Shown here: piece by piece, positions 2,136-18,409 of the stretch
Numbering within the stretch: position 1 is the first letter of the stretch
How the letters are laid out: the number at the start of each line of letters is the position of its first letter
From: a virus
Lineage: Duplodnaviria > Heunggongvirae > Uroviricota > Caudoviricetes
Length of the DNA stretch: 27,323 nucleotides
Strand: one strand, 5' to 3'
Virus record (IMG/VR): IMGVR_UViG_2693429713_000014
Notes under the pieces: generated by a model
Told to the model about the DNA's origin: nothing
Database searches by the model: none
What the model saw: the letters and a program-made list of their open reading frames with translations, nothing else
Translations under genes and position numbers: made by a program

Positions 2136-3104
2136 ATGAATAAGAATTATAAAACGTTTAAACTTGAACTATGGGAGAAGTTTAAGCATCAATGTGCTTA
2201 CTGTGGCACTAAACTTTATGAACCATTGATGGCGGATGTTGATCGTTTTTTCCCAAAATCAAAGTATACTGACTTCCAAGATGCTACAGACAACCTGCTC
2301 ATCGCTTGTAAGGCATGTAGCATGATTAAAAAAGATCAGTTTCCTCTCGATGAAAATGGCAAACCATTACTTCTAAATCCTTTAAATGAAAGTTTTTCAG
2401 AACATATAAAACAAAATAAAAATGGATATTTAGAAGGTTTAACTGAGCGAGGACATGCGACTATAGATATATTACAGTTGAATAGACCTTCATTAATTGA
2501 ACAGCGCATTCTAGATGTTATTGATATGCAGTACTCTGATGATCGAACGCTATCTGAACGAGATGTCTATATGACATTCCAAAATAGTATGCAGAACGCC
2601 ATAAAACTAAATGATGCTCAGTTAAAAATTGATAGCACTTTACAAATACAAATGTCGTATATGCTATATGCCAATACAATAACTTCCTTGGAAACATATT
2701 TATGTGACAGATTTATTTCCCTAATTCATGGTAGCCAAACTAATTTGAGAAATTTTGTTGAAACCTTCAAAGATTACAATACAGAAAAATTCTTACTTTC
2801 TGAATTATTTATAAGGCATGAACAAATAGAGTCTCAAGCGATAGAGTCTATGAAGAGTGTTCTTTATCATAATCTGCCAAAAGTAAGTGGCATGTATCGA
2901 GATACCTTTGGTATTAAATTCCCTGTTTTCACAGAAGTTTATAAAAGCGTGTTAATTAGGCATGACTTAGTTCATCGAGCAGGTAAAACAAAAAATGGTA
3001 ATTTTCATAAGTTAGATTCAGAGTCAGTTAAAGATGTTATCAAAAAATGCTGTGACTTGGTTGAAAAACTAGAAAAAGAGCTTAAAGATTGTGCATCATT
3101 CTAG
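2136..3104 (+). CDS. Hypothetical protein with N-terminal degenerate HNH-like zinc-finger motif and uncharacterised C-terminal domain
   Basis: 322-aa ORF with an AGGA-type RBS. Residues 20-66 read CAYC...DVDRFFP...DNLLIACKAC, i.e. the C-x2-C ... N ... C-x2-C scaffold of HNH with Arg where the catalytic His is expected. AT-rich codon usage. C-terminal region contains R-x4-H (RHDLVH, aa 275-280). Confidence 0.6.
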   Translation: MNKNYKTFKLELWEKFKHQCAYCGTKLYEPLMADVDRFFPKSKYTDFQDATDNLLIACKACSMIKKDQFPLDENGKPLLLNPLNESFSEHIKQNKNGYLEGLTERGHATIDILQLNRPSLIEQRILDVIDMQYSDDRTLSERDVYMTFQNSMQNAIKLNDAQLKIDSTLQIQMSYMLYANTITSLETYLCDRFISLIHGSQTNLRNFVETFKDYNTEKFLLSELFIRHEQIESQAIESMKSVLYHNLPKVSGMYRDTFGIKFPVFTEVYKSVLIRHDLVHRAGKTKNGNFHKLDSESVKDVIKKCCDLVEKLEKELKDCASF

Positions 3105-3286: not shown

Positions 3287-3417
3287 GGTAGATCACCGCC
3301 ATGGGGTGTCGGGGGCGGAGGTTCAAATCCTCTCGTGCTGACCAAAAATCCTCGAAGAACCAGCCTGTTACGGCTGGTTTTTTTTGCCTGTTTTCTGAAC
3401 GGGGAAGCAATGGGGAA
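3287..3417 (+). repeat. Direct repeat A: 3' ~58 nt of a tRNA-Pro gene (no 5' half) plus downstream terminator and flank
   Basis: 3287-3344 reads ggtag..caccgccatggggtgtcgggggcggaggttcaaatcctctcgtgctgacca: T-arm GGTTCAAATCC, acceptor 3' strand, CCA end. Matches recalled E. coli tRNA-Pro 3' portion. No complementary acceptor 5' strand upstream. Confidence 0.7.
3360..3385 (+). terminator. Rho-independent terminator within repeat A
   Basis: Hairpin ccagcc-tgtta-cggctgg followed by eight T residues. Confidence 0.6.
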
Positions 3418-3607
3418 ATTAGCTTACGGTTGACCCCACTGCGAAAAGCGCAGATTTTTATCAATGGACGTACATAGGGTAGATAAGGCACAATACTGCT
3501 TCAATGTCGTCTGATGGTATTGTAATACTAATTACATCAGATGATTTAACTAGATTAGTTCTTTATAGAAATCATTCTTGAATATTAATTGGCTGACTGA
3601 GGTTTTT

Positions 3608-4393
3608 ATGGATGAAAAATACAGAAGATTTGTTGATGAGGTTGACTTTTCAAGACAATTATTAGGCATAGGGCTCACTTCCCTAAGGAAAGCAAATTTT
3701 GCAAGTAGAGGATTGTATTTTCAAGCATTATCCGGCATCAGTTTAGGATTAGAAAGGCTTATGAAACTTTGCCTTATGCTTGATGATTATAATAAAAATG
3801 GAAAATATACATCACGCAAAAAATTAAGAGATTACGGTCATAACTTAAGCAAGTTATTCAACCTAGTCATTGAGAGAGTTGATTCTCCCTCTGGCTTAAA
3901 TGAAATTCACTACAGAGTGATGGAGTTGTTAACTAATTTTGCAAATTCATCAAGATATAGTAATATTGATTTCATTACTAATGACAACGACAATGATCCC
4001 ATGAAGCAATGGTATAATGAAATCGATAAGAGCATTTACGATGAAATATTAACAAAAAGACAAAAAAATATAATTGATAAAAAATGCGAGCAATACCGAA
4101 GCTATGGTGAAACACTGCCATGCTATGTGCTTGGATATTATGATGAAGACAGAAACCATATAAACTCTGCAGGGGATTTAAATTATTTACTTAAAAGAAG
4201 TGAAATGCTTGCTGGTTATCGCACTTTATTAGTTATTCATATCATAGAATGCATCTATAACATATTAGACTCAATGACAGTTCAAGCAAAAGATAATCAC
4301 TTCCACCATCTTGAATTAGGTCGTTTTTTTGCAACCATCATTTATGGCTCTGATAGAGACAAAATCAATAGAAAAAATTTTATCCGTATGTGA
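3608..4393 (+). CDS. Hypothetical protein (261 aa), AT-rich cargo gene flanked by the tRNA-fragment repeats
   Basis: Track ORF 3578..4393 begins with TTG. The ATG at 3608 has GAGG five nt upstream, so it is the preferred start. No recognisable family motifs. Confidence 0.55.
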   Translation: MDEKYRRFVDEVDFSRQLLGIGLTSLRKANFASRGLYFQALSGISLGLERLMKLCLMLDDYNKNGKYTSRKKLRDYGHNLSKLFNLVIERVDSPSGLNEIHYRVMELLTNFANSSRYSNIDFITNDNDNDPMKQWYNEIDKSIYDEILTKRQKNIIDKKCEQYRSYGETLPCYVLGYYDEDRNHINSAGDLNYLLKRSEMLAGYRTLLVIHIIECIYNILDSMTVQAKDNHFHHLELGRFFATIIYGSDRDKINRKNFIRM

Positions 4394-4471: not shown

Positions 4472-4588
4472 ATGGGGTGTCGGGGGGCGGAGGTTCAAAT
4501 CCTCTCGTGCCGACCAAAAATCCTCGAAGAACCAGCCTGTTACGGCTGGTTTTTTTGCCTGTTTTCTGAACGGGGAAGCAATGGGGAA
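4472..4588 (+). repeat. Direct repeat B: tRNA-Pro 3' fragment (~45 nt) plus terminator and flank
   Basis: Near-identical to repeat A over about 117 bp (atggggtgtcggggggcggaggttcaaatcctctcgtgccgacca + terminator + tgttttctgaacggggaagcaatgggga). Confidence 0.7.
4532..4556 (+). terminator. Rho-independent terminator within repeat B
   Basis: Same hairpin ccagcctgttacggctgg followed by seven T residues. Confidence 0.6.
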
Positions 4589-4790
4589 TTACAGGGGAAA
4601 AACCCCGTCAAATGTTGCCCCCGTATCGCTAGCACACAATGATTAAGTATCTTTTTCACTTTCGGAATTCATCAATTCACAAAACCATCATTCCGATTTA
4701 CCTTACATGCTCCTTTTAAATCTTTAACGGTGTGCACCACTTTTTCTAACTGCCCTATACTTTCAGTCTGACATACGGCTGGAGGTTTCT

Positions 4791-5459: not shown

Positions 5460-5873
<414 letters not shown>

Positions 5874-6192: not shown

Positions 6193-6435
6193 ATGTTCGT
6201 GGAACTCGTTTATGACAAAAGGAATTTTGATGGCCTGCCCGGTGCAAAAGATATCATTCTGGGCGAATTGACTAAGAGGGTTCACCGGGTCTTCCCTGAT
6301 GCTGATGTCCGGGTAAAACCGATGATGACACTGCCGGCGATCAACACTGACGCCAGCAAGCATGAGAAGGAACAGATAAGCCGTACTGTTCAGGAAATGT
6401 TTGAAAAGGCTGATATGTGGCTGGTTTCAGATTAA
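6193..6435 (+). CDS. DinI-family DNA-damage-inducible protein
   Basis: 80-aa ORF ending ...MFEKADMWLVSD, resembling the DinI C-terminus (...ESADDWFVSE). RBS aagagg upstream. Confidence 0.75.
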   Translation: MFVELVYDKRNFDGLPGAKDIILGELTKRVHRVFPDADVRVKPMMTLPAINTDASKHEKEQISRTVQEMFEKADMWLVSD

Positions 6436-6563
6436 ACGCCTTGAACCGTCATATTGCTTAAGTACAATCCGCCGTGACTGGCAATCATTCAATACTCGCA
6501 CTATCGAACGTTCGCCAGTTCGTCGCCGCCCGTTCTTGCATACGACGACGCGGTGGCGTTTTC

Positions 6564-7115
6564 TCAACGCCGCGCAGGAAATTTTTTGTATAGCGTCGAC
6601 ACCCCTACATCATAAATTATAGCCACACGTTTTCTAGACTCACCTGCAGCAATCAACCTTCCAGCCTGAGCCCACTCTTCTGCGGTTAACTTTGGTCGTC
6701 TGCCGCCGATCCGACCATCTTCGCGCGCAGCAGCTAAGCCAGCCCGTGTTCGCTCAACAATAAGCTCTCTTTCCATCTCGGCAAGCGCCCCCATGACATG
6801 AAAGAAAAAGCGCCCCATTGGTGTTGAGGTATCTATACTGTCGGTCAGGCTACGGAAGTTTACCCCTCGCTCCCTCATTTCTTCGACCAGCACGACAAGA
6901 TGCCGCATGCTGCGACCGAGGCGATCCAGCTTCCATACCACCAGCGTATCGCCTTCTGATAGCGTCCTGAGCACTTTTTTTAATCCTGGTCTGTCGGACA
7001 CCTTACCGCTGATCTTATCTTCGAAAATCAGTTCACATCCTGCACACTCGAGCGCGTTTCTTTGCAATGCTGTGTTCTGGTCATTTGTTGATACGCGAAC
7101 ATAGCCAATAAGCAT
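6564..7115 (-). CDS. pin: Serine recombinase, Pin/Gin/Hin-family DNA invertase
   Basis: N-terminus MLIGYVRVSTNDQN with the catalytic Ser motif; closely resembles e14 Pin. Start set at the internal Met (7115) with a GGGG RBS rather than the track start at 7151. Confidence 0.9.
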   Translation of the reverse strand: MLIGYVRVSTNDQNTALQRNALECAGCELIFEDKISGKVSDRPGLKKVLRTLSEGDTLVVWKLDRLGRSMRHLVVLVEEMRERGVNFRSLTDSIDTSTPMGRFFFHVMGALAEMERELIVERTRAGLAAAREDGRIGGRRPKLTAEEWAQAGRLIAAGESRKRVAIIYDVGVSTLYKKFPARR

Positions 7116-7170
7116 GGTAGATCCCCCTGACAAAAGCAGGAATGATGCCATTTGCTCGTTATTTCTGCAT

Positions 7171-7200
7171 TTTCATAAACGTTGGTTTGGGAGAAGGTGC
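7171..7200. repeat. Invertase crossover site, left (inverted repeat partner of 8911-8940)
   Basis: tttcataaacgttggtttgggagaaggtgc. The 19-bp core ttggtttgggagaaggtgc (7182-7200) is a perfect inverted repeat of 8911-8929, and 25 of 30 positions match over the extended site. Confidence 0.7.
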
Positions 7201-7477
7201 TAACTGGGTTATGTTACCTGGAGGAATGATAATTCAGCGTGTTTATCTTGGATTTCCTATTGGCACTAATGTAAGACATATAACTTTCCCCCGGTCGTTT
7301 ACAACAACGAACTATTCCATCTCAATTAACTGGAATGATATCGGTACTGTAACAACTGAAACACAATCACCAGCAAATGTGGCGGTTGTTCATCAAACAA
7401 AATCATTAACAGGGGCCAGCATCTGGCAGGCAGGTCCCGGGGGATTTAATGTGGACATTATAGCGGTGGGGTATTGA
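7182..7477 (+). CDS. Alternative tail-fibre C-terminal cassette (silent in this orientation; no own start)
   Basis: Reading frame continues through the crossover core, encoding GLGEGA as in the expressed fibre. Followed directly by an alternative Tfa gene. Mirrors the Sv' arrangement of Mu G / e14 P segments. Confidence 0.55.
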
Positions 7478-7478
7478 T

Positions 7479-7907
7479 ATGTACGTATGGAGCGCTAAAG
7501 CAAATGGCTTTTTCCCCATATCGGAGAAAGAAAAATTTGAGGCATCAGGTCTGTGGCCTGATGATGGTGTAATAGTCAGTGAGGAAGAACATAAAAAGTT
7601 ATTTATGGATATTCCACCAGGAAAACAGATTGGAACACTGAATGGAAAACCAGCACTGATAGATATTCCTCAGCCGACCAAAAAGGAATTAATAGCTATT
7701 GCTGAAGTTAAAAAATCCCAATTACGGGAAAAGGCTGACAGTGAAATATCCTGGCGTCAGGATGCTGTTGATGCTGATATCGCAACTGATGAAGAAGCTA
7801 CAACTCTCACCCAATGGAAGAAATACCGTGTGCTGCTGATGCGTGTTGATACGTCAACAGCACCCGATATTGAATGGCCTACGCCTCCGGCAGTTCAGGC
7901 CAGATGA
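7479..7907 (+). CDS. Tail fibre assembly protein (alternative copy, Tfa')
   Basis: 142-aa ORF with a Tfa-like C-terminus (...WKKYRVLLMRVDTSTAPDIEWPTPP) similar to the minus-strand Tfa. Confidence 0.75.
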   Translation: MYVWSAKANGFFPISEKEKFEASGLWPDDGVIVSEEEHKKLFMDIPPGKQIGTLNGKPALIDIPQPTKKELIAIAEVKKSQLREKADSEISWRQDAVDADIATDEEATTLTQWKKYRVLLMRVDTSTAPDIEWPTPPAVQAR

Positions 7908-8472
7908 CATCCGGCGCGGTGCTGGTATCTGTTGCCGTCACCGCGTCAATGTAATCCAGCACGGCGTTAAGTCGGGTTGTTTCTGCCTGAGTCAGTTTCC
8001 GTCCGGCCTGTAATTTCAGCTGAATCAGACTAATGGAAGCCATTGCTGCATCAATCAGTGACTGGCGCTGTGCTTCTGCCGCGTCTACTGCGGCACTGTG
8101 TTGTGCCTCAGTGTCTGTCACCCATTTCTCACCATCCCATTTATCGTATGGCGTTAACGGTGAAAGCGTGACATAACCGTCTTTGATGGCACCGATATAA
8201 TCCACTGTAACAGCTGCACCATTTTCGATTGAGTAAACAGTCTCATTGCGATGGTCTTCCTCATGGCTCCATCCCTTACCTGTAAATACCGTCACTCTTC
8301 CCAGAATGTTTTCGCCCGGGTCAATACCAGTTGAACAGGCGGGCATACTTACGCCAGTATTAATATATTCATCAGACCAGCCCGTATACTCAGATGTTTC
8401 AGCATCATAATAAAAACAACGCATATCGCCCGGCACTGTAGCCAGCCCATTTTCATCAAAAACAGGTTTCAT
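7879..8472 (-). CDS. Tail fibre assembly protein (Tfa, currently expressed orientation)
   Basis: 197-aa ORF; C-terminus ...DTSTAPDVIWPELPEA. Start overlaps the fibre gene stop. Confidence 0.75.
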   Translation of the reverse strand: MKPVFDENGLATVPGDMRCFYYDAETSEYTGWSDEYINTGVSMPACSTGIDPGENILGRVTVFTGKGWSHEEDHRNETVYSIENGAAVTVDYIGAIKDGYVTLSPLTPYDKWDGEKWVTDTEAQHSAAVDAAEAQRQSLIDAAMASISLIQLKLQAGRKLTQAETTRLNAVLDYIDAVTATDTSTAPDVIWPELPEA

Positions 8473-9218
8473 TATTTAGCCCTCACCAGAAAGTTAAATG
8501 CAATATTTCGCGGTCTGACAGCAACAAAATTCACACCATCACCCACAGAGTTACTGGTGAAATTAAATCGTGAAAATCCTGGCTGATTTCCGGCGATGCC
8601 ATCATGAAAGTTAATTGCGTGTCCCGCACCTTCGCCTATATTCCCGGCAAACTGAGAAAAGTTTGTAGCTGCCTGCCAACTTAATAATTCGCGACCACCA
8701 TCTGCACCTCGCCCGTCATCCCAGACACGAATGAAATCACCGCGTGCGTCAGGTAATGCCAACGCCGGAAACACTTTCGCCAGCACAGGGTAATCAGTGG
8801 CAGAAAATTTCGCCCCGTTGAACTTCAAAAACACCATACTGGACCAGCTGTCGATTACAGTATTTGGCATTGCAGCGGACGCCCAGAAGAACGGAACACC
8901 AATAGCTGGAGCACCTTCTCCCAAACCAAGGTTTTCGAGAGCCGTTTTCACCGTGCCATCCGATTTGATATCGCCAAACGGATTCTTGCGGCTTAACAGC
9001 AGCGCACGAAGCGCTGTAAGCAGCTGGTCATGCCGCCCCTTCTCCAGGCTGGCACCGGATACCTCCACAACACTGCAAAGTTCCTCCTGCAACATGTCAA
9101 AGTAGTCATCATCCAGATCGGTGGCAGGTGTGCCGGTCTGGGGGTTACCACGGGTAAAACCGTTCTTACCCGCGCCGAACTTATCCTTCTGCGCGGTTTT
9201 CGTGTCTATACGATGCAT
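8472..9218 (-). CDS. Tail fibre protein (constant N-terminal part plus variable C-terminal part inside the invertible segment)
   Basis: 248-aa ORF. The crossover site lies within it at 8911-8940, encoding LGLGEGA. Confidence 0.7.
8911..8940. repeat. Invertase crossover site, right
   Basis: gcaccttctcccaaaccaaggttttcgaga, the reverse complement of the left site core. Confidence 0.7.
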
Positions 9219-9221
9219 GGA

Positions 9222-9806
9222 TTACTCCGGATATTTAAAAATTACGTAGGTATGCGACGGGCAGAGTTTGTTAAGCACACACTCGACAACGGTGTCGCCC
9301 CAGATACGCAGTGCGGAATCACAGGGATCGCCACATGTCATCCAGGTGGTGTTGGTGGCGGCTGGCATGTTGACCTGCCAGTAATACCGCCATTCCGGCG
9401 CATTCACCGCGTCAGTACAGGCCGATGAGCAGGTGAACGTGCTTTTGTCGTATCGCGTGATGGTGGCGTCTGGTCTGCCCAGGGCAGCAAGCTGTGCAAG
9501 GTAAAAATCCTCATTGATGCCGCCCGCCAGGTTAACCTTCGCATCCAGTCGTTGCTGACGCTGGCGAAGGGTCTGTGTCCCTGCGGGAATACATTCATCC
9601 GGCAGGCCGCACAGACGCTCCCAGCGATTTATCAGTTCGGTGGTGGTGCGCGGATCCAGCTCCCGCATCAGGGCATCCGCACGCTGATGAACGCGGGTTA
9701 ATGACGGTGCCGCACCGGCAATCGCCGGATCGCTGGCTGACCACGCCGGACCGGGGGGCAACAGTGCCGACAACAGATGGATGTAATCATCGTTTGTCAC
9801 GTCCAT
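9222..9806 (-). CDS. Mu gp48-like / YmfQ-like (DUF2313) baseplate or tail protein
   Basis: 194-aa ORF placed between the baseplate J-like gene and the tail fibre; family assigned from recalled similarity to e14 YmfQ. Confidence 0.65.
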
Positions 9807-11815: not shown

Positions 11816-12925
11816 CAGAACGGGTCCTCCTGTACTCTGGCTTTTTTCTTTTTCCGCGCGCCGGGGTCTTCAGGTTCAGGCAGATAAGCATCAGGCGGGC
11901 CGACACGGATTTCCGTCAGGGTGCCGTTCTGGTCCTGAGTAAACGTGACTTCCGAAACAAGCAGTTCGGTATTGTCAAAACCACAGACCGGATCAAAGAC
12001 AATCACCCGCTGGTTGGGTTGCCACAGCGTACCGTTACCCTGTCGCCAGCCCTGCACCACATAGGTGGTTTCATCCGTCCGCGCCGCCCGTTGCCGGGCT
12101 TCAAAGTCCGCACGGGCAATACAGCCTGCCCCCGTAGCCTGCCCTGTCTGCCTGATATACATCGGACGGTAACGGGCAATAAATGCGTCCTCTGTGCGGG
12201 CCCGCAGCGCGGTGGTGGTGGCCTCACCGAAATCATCGTCGTTTCCGGCACGCTGCCCCGCCACCTGGTAAACTGAAAACCGATCCCGGATACTCTTCTC
12301 CGTATCACAGGAAAGGATGTTTTCCCCAAGTACCAGCGCGGTATGTGCCCGCGTTGAGCCAATACCACCAATCACCAGCCTGCCGTGCGGGTCGTCATAA
12401 GCCAGCGCCTGCTGCTGACCGAGTATTTTGTTGATCACCTCAATCACCGTTTCACCGTGATCAGGCTGGACATCCGGAATAACACCCGACGGCGCATCGC
12501 TGTTCACCACCTCAATGCCGAAAGGCGCAGCAAGCGCCTGCGCAATCTGTACCAGCGATCGTCCGTTAAACTGTGTCGGTTCGGCTGCACAGTCAATCAG
12601 GTCAGCAGTCAGACTACGTCCGGCAATACCGGTGCTGACCGAACGGGCATCGTAACGAACGGGGGTCGCCTCCACCCAGCCGGTGATCACCAGCTCATAA
12701 CCAATCAGCACTTCCACTTTTGAACCATTTTTAATGCGCGGCTGAAGCGTGGTGATACCCTCATCTCCCGGCCANNNNNNNNNNNNNNNNNNNNNNNNNN
12801 NNNNNNNNNNNNNNNNNNNNNNNNNNNNNNNNNNNNNCCAGCCGTTCAATACCGGCACCGATGCGCACCGATGTCCAGCCATTCCACTCCCGGCCATTTA
12901 CCCGTAGCGTGACGTTATCGTTCAT
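11815..12925 (-). CDS. Baseplate hub protein (Mu gp44 / P2 gpD-like), interrupted by an assembly gap
   Basis: N-terminal frame from the ATG at 12925-12923 (MNDNVTLRVNGREWNGW...) overlaps the upstream stop in an ATGA arrangement. The frame after the N-run differs from it. Confidence 0.7.
12775..12837. other. Run of 63 N (assembly gap or masked bases)
   Basis: Directly visible. Confidence 1.
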
Positions 12926-14250
12926 TGCACTGGCACCTTCAGAGGGATCACCGGCACAAAGCCGGGATGCGTAATGGCATTACGCCGGATAATGTCCGCG
13001 TCACGCGCCGCGTTATCAAACCAGGTCGCCGCCAGCACCAGCGCGGGTAAAACCTCATCCGGTGTGCGCTGAATGATCCGTGCAGACTGTTCAAGGCGCG
13101 TGTTGATATCCGCATTCAGATCTGCTTTCACCCGGCGCAGCGCCAGAAACAGCGCATCGCTGGTTGTACGGGACAACTCCTTATCAATTGCCGTATTCAG
13201 TGTGTCGCGAATGTCAGTCAGTTCTTCCCACGTCGGCAGGTCAACCGTGTTTTTCACCGCCGGTGCATTGTTCAGTGCCGGATGCGTGACGGAAGGCCAG
13301 CCAGTGCTCTGCGCGGGTGTTGTTGCCTGCCCCACTGCGGCATTCTGCATCACCGCGGAAGTTGTTGGCGCAGGCAATCGGGTGACGGCATACGCCGCTT
13401 CGCTGATTGCGGTCGTACGAAGGGTGCTGGCAACCACGTTACGCTGCTGCGTCGCCGTGGCGGTGGTTTTACTGTCCGTTTTCCAGACGCCGCGCGGTTG
13501 CAGATCGCTGCCGAGGCTGACACCGGAAAGCGTTTTGATCATGGTGACCAGGTCGCTGGCGTTACCATAAAGGCGTTTCCCGGTACGCCACATTTTCTGC
13601 ACCTGCTCAACGAAGTTTTTGCCTGACGATGGCGGAGGCAGAAGTACCGAGATATCCCCCTGCAACAGTCTGGCGGCATCCGATACGGCAGAATCCACCA
13701 CTTTCATCGCATCAGAAACATACCCAAGCATTGTGCTGGCATTACCGACGACGTCGTTCTGCACAAAATCCGCCACGCCATCGATACTGAAACCACTGAA
13801 ACTGTCACTGATGCAGTCATCCAGTGCAGAACAGGATGACATCAGCGTCTGCGCCGTCGCCGCACCTGAAGTGGGGTAAGAGAGTTCTCCCGCTTCGACA
13901 AACTTCAGGTCAAAGCGGACAATACGCCCTTCACTCTTCGATGTGCTGACCCGAACTTCTCCGTCAACACAGACTTTCAGCTCACCGTAAGTCGGATGGA
14001 CAAGCGTGCCGGGACCGGGTTTATTCAGCGCGTCAATCAGGCGATCGCGCTGGTCAAAGCAGTCATCTCCCACCACATAAGCTGTGATGGACGGGCGGAA
14101 AGTGATTTTCCCCAGGTCTTCGGTATAGGGTTTGTCGCGGTTCGGGTATTCGTGCGTTTCCACACGACGACCGGTTCCCGCACTTTCTTCTTCAACCTTA
14201 AACGGCACACCACGAAATGACGCGTCCTGAAGTCTGTCTTTCCACGTCAT
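12922..14250 (-). CDS. DNA circulation protein (Mu gp43-like)
   Basis: N-terminus MTWKDRLQDASFRGVPF from the start at 14250 with GGAG six nt upstream; the track ORF starts further 5' at 14292. Confidence 0.7.
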   Translation of the reverse strand: MTWKDRLQDASFRGVPFKVEEESAGTGRRVETHEYPNRDKPYTEDLGKITFRPSITAYVVGDDCFDQRDRLIDALNKPGPGTLVHPTYGELKVCVDGEVRVSTSKSEGRIVRFDLKFVEAGELSYPTSGAATAQTLMSSCSALDDCISDSFSGFSIDGVADFVQNDVVGNASTMLGYVSDAMKVVDSAVSDAARLLQGDISVLLPPPSSGKNFVEQVQKMWRTGKRLYGNASDLVTMIKTLSGVSLGSDLQPRGVWKTDSKTTATATQQRNVVASTLRTTAISEAAYAVTRLPAPTTSAVMQNAAVGQATTPAQSTGWPSVTHPALNNAPAVKNTVDLPTWEELTDIRDTLNTAIDKELSRTTSDALFLALRRVKADLNADINTRLEQSARIIQRTPDEVLPALVLAATWFDNAARDADIIRRNAITHPGFVPVIPLKVPVQ

Positions 14251-14310
14251 ATAAACTCCGTACATAAAAAATCCCACCGGAGTGGGACTCATTAACAGAT
14301 TAATTTTTCA

Positions 14311-16913: not shown

Positions 16914-18409
16914 TATGCGGACTCCTCTGAATACTGAAGACGGAACTGGTTAACCACGGCAAAGACACGCAACTGGTTAACATAGTCAGGCGGGAACAGC
17001 GTGTTCAGGCGGTTCGGATCGCTGGCATCACGCTCCACAACCAGGTACTGCTTAAACAGTTCGTAGTTTTCCACGATCCCCGCACGCTCAAGCTGACGGT
17101 AGGTTGCCAGCAGCTCCCCTTTGATCACCGCCGGGGTGACAATCGCCTGACCGGGACCAAAGCGGGTACCGTCGCTGGCAAGCTTGTGACGCCCGTACTT
17201 ACTGGTAATGACGGATTTCAGTTTGCGCAGCACATACGCGCTGGTATGCAGCGTCTCGCTGTCGAGGTAGCTGTTATCCGCAACACCGTAAGCGTTTTTC
17301 CTGTACGTGGTGACATCACGCTGAATGCGCAGCACCCCGCTTTCGACATACGCCGTTGCCACGCCATGAGACAGCAGGGTCTGTTGTTCGGTCATCGTGA
17401 ACCGTTTCCCCTTCGGCGCAGGCAGCATACCCACCAGCTCACCGGTCTGCGTGGGACGTGCCGGATCGTTGCGAATAAACACCGCTGCGCGGGCGGTACG
17501 GCTTGCCACCAGCTCGTCGGCAGGCGTCTGGGTGTCTTTTTCGTATCCCGCCAGGGTAATGTGCTGCTGGTTAAACTGGTCACCTGCGGTCACCAGTTCT
17601 GACAGCGTGCCGATCTTTGCCGTATACACATGACCATACAGCTGACGCGCATAGCTCCAGCGACCGCTGGTATCGTTCATCTCTGTCACCAGCGTGTTAA
17701 CGGAGGCAGTGTCGTTGAACGGCAGGCCAATATAATCAAACGGCTCATCCGCCATTGCAGCCACCGCGCCGGTGAGAACCGGAGCGCCCGTTCCGGCGCT
17801 CCCCGTCGCCACAGCAATCTGTACGCCCGCTGGCAGCACTTCGCCCCCACCAAAGCCGTAGTAATTGAGGCTGACAGGAATTTCATTCCCGCAAAGCCCC
17901 TTATGACGCGCGGTCAGCGTGACCACGCCTGCCGAAGATGAGGCCGTAAACGGCAGGGCCGGAACGGCATTAATGGCATCTTTGATACTGCTGGCAATCG
18001 TCGCGACGTTATCGCCGTTGGTCACCGGTGCCTGCACGCGGGTACGTCCCACATAAACATTCACCGTGCCGGTTTCGGTTGCCGCCCCGGTCACCGTCAG
18101 CGTAACCGTTGCCGCCGCGCCTGTAGCTTCCGGAACGGCAATCACATACAGCTCGCCAAACGGGTCGGTCTGGCGATAAGCCTCGACCATACGCGCCAGC
18201 TGACTTCCCGCACCACAAATCTGGCGTGCATAGTCTGCCGACGGCATCAGCACCAGACTGTTGGCAACAATCTCTGCACCGTTATTGGCGTGACCAATCA
18301 GCAACGATGCCCCGCTGTCCTGTGCAGTATTCGCCGCCGAGTTATCCATTTCCGCATAAAACAGCGGAACCAGCGTATTCGACGGAATGGTGTTAAAGCT
18401 TATCGTCAT
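16913..18409 (-). CDS. Tail sheath protein
   Basis: 498-aa ORF in the conserved position for contractile-tail sheath. Confidence 0.85.
   Translation of the reverse strand: MTISFNTIPSNTLVPLFYAEMDNSAANTAQDSGASLLIGHANNGAEIVANSLVLMPSADYARQICGAGSQLARMVEAYRQTDPFGELYVIAVPEATGAAATVTLTVTGAATETGTVNVYVGRTRVQAPVTNGDNVATIASSIKDAINAVPALPFTASSSAGVVTLTARHKGLCGNEIPVSLNYYGFGGGEVLPAGVQIAVATGSAGTGAPVLTGAVAAMADEPFDYIGLPFNDTASVNTLVTEMNDTSGRWSYARQLYGHVYTAKIGTLSELVTAGDQFNQQHITLAGYEKDTQTPADELVASRTARAAVFIRNDPARPTQTGELVGMLPAPKGKRFTMTEQQTLLSHGVATAYVESGVLRIQRDVTTYRKNAYGVADNSYLDSETLHTSAYVLRKLKSVITSKYGRHKLASDGTRFGPGQAIVTPAVIKGELLATYRQLERAGIVENYELFKQYLVVERDASDPNRLNTLFPPDYVNQLRVFAVVNQFRLQYSEESA

Follow-up and report, generated by a model that had tools for sequence, protein, structure and literature searches.

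A very probably functional Pin-class inversion switch for tail-fibre tips in a complete e14-type prophage of Escherichia coli

The window analysed here is a stretch of 27,323 nucleotides (nt) from a virus of the Caudoviricetes (IMG/VR record IMGVR_UViG_2693429713_000014), and it is a complete SfV/e14-like prophage of Escherichia coli at the e14 attachment locus (icd/iraM). Its positions 6564–9218 carry a DNA invertase gene, pin, beside a segment that is bounded by two inverted crossover sites, named pixL and pixR, and that holds two alternative tail-fibre tips, each with a Tfa chaperone. The locus is very probably a working two-state inversion switch of the Hin/Gin/Cin/Pin class, equivalent to the P region of an e14-type prophage and placed inside a complete SfV/e14-like prophage at icd. 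The features found on testing are the invertase domains, paired 26-bp sites, Fis/enhancer-contact residues, an in-frame layout with two tips, the e14-orthologous locus and the inverted form in other genomes. A preliminary description of this DNA had already called the switch intact, and the residues of Pin, both crossover sites and the two orientations found in nature bear this out.

Genes of the inversion locus

The coding parts of the locus are the following.

6564–7115, minus strand: pin, DNA invertase of 183 amino acids (aa), a small serine recombinase with a C-terminal helix-turn-helix (HTH) domain (Pfam, PHROG, Gin alignment, RefSeq start)
7184–7477, plus strand: Sv', alternative tip of 97 aa, at present unfused to the constant part (Pfam PF21882 Gp53-like_C; C-terminal matches to PHROG 2557 and 1396)
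7479–7907, plus strand: Tfa142, chaperone of the Sv' cassette, 142 aa (Pfam Caudo_TAP, 6.6e-33; PHROG 188 tail fiber assembly, 2e-54)
7879–8472, minus strand: Tfa197, chaperone of the expressed cassette, 197 aa (Pfam Caudo_TAP, 3.8e-27; PHROG 105, 1.7e-83)
8472–8927, minus strand: Sv, currently expressed variable tip, collar-type, ~150 aa (PHROG 3100, 523 and 6459, tail fibre/tail collar)
8930–9218, minus strand: Sc, constant N-terminus of the fibre, ~96 aa (96% DNA identity to K-12 stfP/ymfQ; N-terminal matches to PHROG 1396, 2617 and 1858)

Pin matches the Pfam families Resolvase (3.8e-50) and HTH_7 (3.1e-14) and PHROG 125 DNA invertase (E 6.7e-95), and it aligns without a gap to Gin of phage Mu (3UJ3/4M6F; E 6.9e-93), in agreement with its earlier naming as a Pin-type invertase. 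The extent of the gene needs correction. The mechanical open reading frame (ORF) 6564–7151 (minus strand) reaches 7151, and family-wide conservation points to the ATG at 7115 (MLIGYVRVS), which RefSeq uses in strain AH01; Pin most likely starts there and not at 7151. The N-terminal resolvase domain keeps the active-site Ser9 within GYVRVSTNDQ, so that the serine lies in the YVRVS motif, and the C-terminal HTH is accompanied by the enhancer/Fis-contact residues of the invertase type. With a numbering offset of −1, taken from the alignment to the Hin DNA-binding domain 1HCR, Pin K46, K47, R50, Q150, R153 and L154 correspond to Hin positions 47, 48, 51, 151, 154 and 155. The residues K47, K/R48, K/R51, Q151, R154 and L155 of Hin touch the Fis-bound enhancer and are kept in DNA invertases, but not in resolvases (McLean et al., PMC3798978). 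Pin was also compared with 73 distinct invertase genes from viral contigs, e14 and Mu (median nucleotide identity to this pin 76%), and it departs from none of the positions that are at least 95% conserved among them. A search of NCBIfam yielded only sub-threshold matches for Pin and no model for the fibre, the tips or the Tfa proteins. RefSeq calls Pin merely a 'recombinase family protein'.

The fibre gene closes the baseplate/late operon and begins 4 nt past a ymfQ-like gene. Its present tip, Sv, shares 41% identity with the tip of K-12 StfE, and at the DNA level it matches the side tail fibre of phages mEp213 and mEp043 with ~91% identity. Tfa197 shares 64% identity with K-12 TfaE, and its ATG overlaps the stop codon of the fibre (TAATG, 8470–8474). 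The match of Sv' to PF21882 is modest (1.2e-5; 26.2 bits vs a cutoff of 24.9). Sv' is annotated as an ORF of 111 aa at 7142–7477 (plus strand) that starts at the ATG at 7142 with the leader MMPFARYFCIFINV, and Tfa142 starts one base past this ORF. The two cassettes between the sites are convergent, and the 3´ ends of the tfa genes, on opposite strands, share 29 nt, as in K-12; the Gp53-like_C and collar-type tips and the two Caudo_TAP chaperones thus give substance to the convergent pairs of fibre C-terminus and Tfa that the preliminary description had read from the sequence. When 7184–8927 is inverted in silico, the constant part is in frame with the Gp53-like tip and a 196-aa fibre results, vs the present fibre of 248 aa. 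The two tips, collar-type and Gp53-like, are unrelated in sequence and would likely recognize different receptors, and a switch between them would be expected to alter the host range.

RefSeq names the 248-aa fibre (8472–9218, minus strand) an 'integrase' (WP_137580425.1, strain AH01). By PHROG it is a tail fibre (E 3e-61) and its N-terminus is that of StfP, which marks the RefSeq name as a misannotation that hides the switch.

Crossover sites

The segment is bounded by the following sites and repeat arms.

7170–7195, no strand: pixL, invertase-proximal 26-bp site, TTTTCATAAACG TT GGTTTGGGAGAA, with the core dinucleotide at 7182–7183; the same as the pinE-proximal site of K-12 e14
7182–7201, no strand: left arm of the 20-bp repeat (core, inner half-site and 6 bp)
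8910–8929, no strand: right arm of the 20-bp repeat, inside the 248-aa ORF 8472–9218 (minus strand)
8916–8941, no strand: pixR, 26-bp site within the fibre gene, TTCTCCCAAACC AA GGTTTTCGAGAG, with the core at 8928–8929; the same as the stfP-internal site of K-12 e14

The sequence at 7182–7200 is the exact reverse complement of 8911–8929. The 19-bp inverted repeat first reported is therefore real and perfect, and it is longer by one base pair: the perfect repeat spans 20 bp (7182–7201 and 8910–8929), and it grows to 25 nt (7177–7201 and 8910–8934) if one mismatch is allowed. Simple arithmetic gives a chance expectation of ~3e-4 for a perfect 20-bp inverted repeat in 27 kb, and the 14-mer TTCTCCCAAACCAA has two copies in the whole window, both of them in the repeat arms. 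The right arm does lie within the expressed fibre gene, as had been stated. The functional unit is a 26-bp site of the hix/gix type, in which two imperfect 12-bp half-sites flank a 2-bp core, and the 20-bp repeat spans only the core, the inner half-site and 6 bp of each site. The repeat was hence a fair marker of the segment boundary, and the inversion breakpoints described below fall inside it, but the boundary proper is formed by pixL and pixR.

The inner half-sites and the cores are the same in pixL and pixR, and the core is AA in both when read in site orientation. The outer half-sites, TTTTCATAAACG and CTCTCGAAAACC, are unlike each other, yet both still fit TTnTCnnAAAC(C/G). Both 26-bp sites are identical, base for base, to the P-segment sites of K-12 e14. 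The cores lie 1746 bp apart, centre to centre. pixL is located 80 nt upstream of the invertase ATG, a placing shared by most related viral loci, while pixR is part of the fibre coding sequence (...ALENLGLGE...). No third crossover site occurs in the 27 kb at up to 3 mismatches, apart from an unrelated 3-mismatch match at 17840. With two sites alone in the window, a system of multiple inversions is ruled out here, and the arrangement is that of a two-state switch.

Some related loci are built differently. In L024, L045, L053, L062 and others, the proximal site is 134 nt from the invertase ATG, and extra direct-copy sites occur 340–970 bp upstream, which suggests that these relatives may be multi-site systems with more than two states. 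The viral-contig invertases of L005–L009 share 97–99% protein identity with Pin, and adjoin sites with another inner half-site (TTCTACTAAACC...) and other tips. Near-identical enzymes with other sites and tips suggest that pin alleles and their sites or segments have been reassorted by recombination.

Both orientations of the segment occur in E. coli genomes

A 600-nt query of the predicted inverted junction, which joins the constant part to the Gp53-like tip, finds a 100% match in E. coli fEC.1, where this fusion gene is annotated. In the 12.6-kb fEC.1 locus, the protein accessions of Pin, YmfQ, baseplate J and neighbours are the same. Aligned with the window inverted in silico, fEC.1 shows one mismatch and no gap over 10,147 nt. 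Aligned with the native window, the match breaks within 7177–7201 and 8910–8934, and the middle piece is reversed. Comparison of genomes thus indicates that the segment between the sites inverts, and, together with the frame kept in silico, the inverted form in fEC.1 agrees with the earlier proposal that inversion swaps the tip and its chaperone. Prophages that differ by 1 nt over 10 kb and have opposite orientations imply a very recent flip.

The survey was extended to 5,426 complete E. coli genomes, in which a genome was counted as colinear if it matched over at least 80% of 6400–9300. The window arrangement was found in 24 genomes and the inverted one in 22, a split that is the expected look of a frequently flipping segment in a collection of assemblies. 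At 99% identity or more, the window orientation is represented by AH01, GF8, GF75 and GF161, and the inverted orientation by fEC.1 and CDF6. Matches from the enterotoxigenic E. coli (ETEC) lineage resemble further orientation pairs; they are partly symmetric and were left out as independent evidence.

A candidate enhancer within pin and a conserved upstream block

Constraint at synonymous sites was measured as normalised codon entropy over the 73 invertase genes. In contrast to a gene mean of 0.72, the lowest entropy is found at codons 8–12 (0.10), and the second-lowest non-overlapping stretch at codons 25–29 (0.24). Both blocks are at least 97% conserved at the nucleotide level, whereas the stretch between them varies freely. 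They contain two candidate sites, and the region upstream of pin contains a third conserved element.

7078–7094, minus strand: candidate proximal Fis site, pin nt 22–38, GT.TCAACAAATGACCA, with the 15-bp core GTATCAACAAATGAC at 7080–7094
7031–7045, minus strand: candidate distal Fis site, pin nt 71–85, GTGCAGGATGTGAAC, with the conserved pattern G.GCAGGATG.GA.C
7142–7150, minus strand: conserved TGGCATCAT block, 27–35 nt upstream of the pin ATG, whose complement ATGATGCCA gives the ATG of the pin-proximal leader ORF

In a recombinational enhancer, the paired Fis sites are spaced by ~48 bp; the candidate cores here are 49 bp apart. The centre of the proximal one is ~96 bp from the core of pixL; in the known systems the enhancer lies inside the 5´ end of the invertase gene, with the proximal Fis site ~100 bp away from hixL (PMC3798978). 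Each block holds a 15-mer bounded by G and C, and the distal one has pyrimidine-purine steps at ±(3–4) and T at ±8. G/C core boundaries, pyrimidine-purine steps at ±(3–4) and T at ±8 are traits of the Fis motif (PMC4784862). From this we infer that the two blocks may be the two Fis sites of a recombinational enhancer. The map of synonymous constraint gives a clean sequence signature of the candidate enhancer inside the invertase gene and could be used to recognise Fis-dependent invertases.

On the pin strand, TGGCAT is kept 25–32 nt before the invertase start in 90% or more of the 65 distinct upstream regions compared, that of Mu gin included. It is also kept in loci in which the crossover site is 134 nt away instead of 80 nt (L004, which is Mu, and L005–L083 were compared). 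The block can be read as a candidate extended −10 element (TGnCATnAT) of the pin promoter. A sigma-54 reading of the TGGCAT-N-TGCT block was dropped, since the −12 GC is lost in many related loci.

Comparison with known inversion systems

The closest relative is the P region of K-12 e14 (pinE, stfP/tfaP, tfaE/stfE). Inversion of this region has been known since 1985. The two loci share the icd/iraM-side position, the order ymfQ, fibre, two convergent tfa genes and pin, both 26-bp sites, 96% DNA identity over the fibre constant part and ymfQ, and a leader ORF that adjoins pin. The inversion of the K-12 e14 P segment has been shown by polymerase chain reaction (PCR), sequencing and quantitative PCR (PMC4272514, PMC12529663), and the two orientations counted in the genome survey agree with this. 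The differences lie elsewhere. The K-12 element is a defective remnant and a decayed version of this phage, which here retains the complete module for tail, head and packaging. This pin has ~77% DNA identity to pinE. The K-12 P segment is reported as 1797 bp with the repeat TTGGTTTGGGAGAAGG (PMC12529663), vs 1746 bp centre to centre here, and the K-12 repeat is quoted as 16 bp, vs 20 bp perfect here. The K-12 StfP tip has no blastp match to the Gp53-like tip, Tfa142 is 33% identical to TfaP, and McrA of K-12 e14 is replaced by a different 322-aa HNH protein. The locus is therefore already known biology, as the preliminary description had said: it is the e14 P region itself, with identical sites and an unchanged place on the chromosome, here within a complete prophage, and RefSeq genomes contain this sequence in either orientation.

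The G segment of Mu has the same layout, with Sc, a site in the fibre gene, Sv-U / U'-Sv', a second site and an invertase gene that is read in the direction of the late operon. Gin aligns gaplessly with Pin, the blocks of the enhancer region are near-identical in DNA, and the upstream TGGCAT is common to both. In contrast, the G segment is ~3 kb with far longer fibres, and its gix half-sites are of another sequence (TTCCTGTAAACC...). Mu belongs to the transposable phages, whereas the prophage here combines lambda/HK97-like head genes with a Mu-like baseplate, as in SfV.

Hin with the H segment of Salmonella and Cin with the C segment of P1, both likened here by description, share the recombinase subclass, the 26-bp site with a 2-bp core and, if the candidate Fis sites here are real, an enhancer placed early (5´ end) in the invertase gene, ~100 bp away from the proximal site (PMC3798978). 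Unlike the system here, Hin flips a promoter and not coding cassettes, and hin lies inside its segment. The fibre regions with multiple inversions, for example Min of p15B and the three-repeat locus of a P2-like prophage (PMC4272514), have the same invertase family and the same logic of tip exchange, but at least three sites and more than two tips, vs exactly two sites here.

Over the constant part of the fibre and the baseplate wedge gene upstream of it, phages SfV, SfI and SfIV have 96–97% DNA identity to the window, and their matches end at the crossover site (query 2516–2901 only). Mosaicism of the cassettes is the norm: in related viral loci, the same pin-proximal site is found beside many other tips.

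Prophage context and other features of the window

From the left, the window carries ycgX, iraM and a fragment of icd, and then the accessory genes, which encode an HNH protein at the place of mcrA, a SRAP peptidase, a frameshifted UmuD-like gene and dinI. These are followed by pin, the segment, the fibre, ymfQ, baseplate J/gp46/V, tape measure, tube and sheath, and the module is completed by capsid, protease, portal and terminase. pin is read in the same direction as the late operon and lies just past the segment, as in Mu. Searches with Rfam and ARAGORN found no RNA genes in the window.

The 322-aa HNH-type protein (2136–3104) stands where K-12 e14 has mcrA, and shows weak N-terminal matches to HNH families of PHROG and no Pfam match; this position may be occupied by a moron of another kind, with a restriction-type or defence role. 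In two direct repeats of 122 nt (3301–3421 and 4472–4591; 96.7% identical), the 3´-terminal ~45 nt of a proL-like tRNA-Pro gene (anticodon loop to CCA) are combined with a terminator-like hairpin. The repeats flank an ORF of 271 aa (3578–4393) without a Pfam or PHROG match, and they resemble remnants of att sites, left behind by a small integrative element or moron within the accessory end of the prophage.

The UmuD-like S24 peptidase gene, frameshifted according to RefSeq, contains a (GCTG)8 repeat at 5773–5804. The repeat has ten units in AH01 (+8 nt), and its copy number varies among otherwise near-identical prophages, possibly by slipped-strand variation or as mere decay of a pseudogene. 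A difference in its length between fEC.1 and the window, suspected from annotated gene lengths, was refuted by the gapless alignment. At 12775–12837, in the region of a baseplate/DNA-circularization gene, 63 N stand for 32 nt that are present in AH01 and fEC.1; this run is a masked stretch or an assembly gap, and it distorts the ORF calls around 12891–14292.

Discussion

The analysis establishes, at the level of sequence, the architecture of the sites, the family and key residues of the invertase, the reading frame, the identity of the cassettes and the existence of both orientations in nature. In the mechanism that we propose, Pin dimers would bind the inverted 26-bp sites pixL and pixR, and Fis, bound to the candidate two-site enhancer within the initial ~90 bp of the coding sequence of pin, would build the invertasome on supercoiled DNA; dependence of this switch on Fis is thus predicted. 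Pin would cut both identical 2-bp cores (AA/TT), one pair of subunits would rotate by 180 degrees and the DNA would be religated, so that the DNA between the cores, 1746 bp centre to centre, would be flipped. Because pixR lies inside the fibre gene, the constant, baseplate-proximal N-terminus (~96 aa) would remain part of the late operon, and the exchange would concern the tip with its co-translated Tfa. State A, that of the window, would produce the 248-aa fibre with the collar-type, StfE-like tip together with Tfa197, and state B the 196-aa fibre with the Gp53-like tip together with Tfa142. A lysogen population would then release two kinds of virion with two receptor specificities.

Several points weigh against this account. 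E. coli genomes often carry more than one Pin-family invertase; the genome of AH01 has four places that match the locus, and PinQ, another member of the family, acts in trans on e14 (PMC12529663). Since enzymes of this family act in trans, the polymorphism in orientation is no proof that this pin copy is active, and flipping by this copy rather than by another invertase of the cell is presumed. A scan for sigma-70 consensus promoters found none for pin at 9/12 matches. The candidate Fis sites are placed by conservation and position, with a spacing of 49 bp. Switching in the source strain is likewise predicted from comparison with other genomes.

The locus could on such grounds be taken as a frozen relic, in which sites and cassettes are kept, this Pin is inactive, and the orientations stem from rare past events or from trans-acting invertases. 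The documented cross-reactivity among Pin-family invertases (PMC12529663), the several homologous places per genome and the failure of the consensus scan to find a clear pin promoter fit this view. Several observations stand against it: Pin agrees with all family positions that are at least 95% conserved, both sites are perfect copies of the working sites of K-12 e14, both islands of the candidate enhancer are intact, near-identical prophages (1 nt apart in 10 kb) have opposite orientations, and the two arrangements occur in a ratio of ~1:1 (24 vs 22 genomes). We regard a relic as very improbable. A role of the repeat outside recombination has next to no chance. It could be a coincidence, or a by-product of paralogous fibre genes that share a GLGEGA motif, and both arms are indeed coding and specify the same peptide; yet the chance expectation is only ~3e-4, the sites show the complete 12-2-12 hix architecture down to the non-repeated outer half-sites, an invertase gene stands 80 nt away, an arrangement seen in dozens of related loci, and the natural inversion breakpoints fall inside the repeat. 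The fEC.1 breakpoints and the identity of the sites to those of K-12 e14 effectively refute it.

A further alternative concerns what the inversion is for. The pin-proximal cassette has its own ATG (7142/7145) and a 14-codon leader, and the switch might also, or instead, be an anti-phage device of the host, in which this cassette is translated as an anchor-less tip that blocks receptors for other phages. The leader is near-identical to that of K-12 stfE (MPFACYFFIFINV), and an in-frame ATG-Pro start before the invertase-proximal site is also found in Mu and in most related loci. StfE2, a leader-tip chimera that arises from e14 inversion, is reported to block adsorption of T2 (Kirigo et al. 2025, PMC12529663), and the pin-proximal ORF here (leader and Gp53-like tip) belongs to the same class of arrangement as StfE2 (leader and StfP tip). 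On the other hand, the leader has in-frame stops in at least 9 of ~57 distinct related loci, which indicates that the ORF is not generally maintained and weakens the leader as a selected feature. ATGCCA, which is conserved, is complementary to the TGGCAT of the pin strand and can be explained just as well by a promoter element of pin. The consensus scan found no promoter-like site facing the pin-proximal ORF at 9/12 matches, the Gp53-like tip lacks blastp similarity to the StfP tip of K-12, and in a complete prophage the virion function is enough to account for the locus. Given the leader stops and the missing promoter-like site, the conservation of TGGCAT and its ATG is more probably due to a promoter element of pin than to selection for a free-tip protein. 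We therefore consider the anti-phage device unlikely. Its stricter form, in which the pin-proximal cassette in either orientation would yield a free receptor-binding tip from the leader ATG (7142/7145), and the flip would toggle superinfection exclusion or an anti-phage function, appears quite doubtful. If it were true, the defence toggle claimed for StfE2 would exist here in a complete, presumably inducible prophage with different tips.

As an instance of a known two-state switch of the Pin class, the locus has little value as a discovery, but the RefSeq labels 'integrase' and 'recombinase family protein' hide the switch from automated annotation. To ask whether P inversion alters the host range of the phage, host defence or both, a complete prophage of the e14 type in which the switch is intact would suit better than the defective e14 of K-12.

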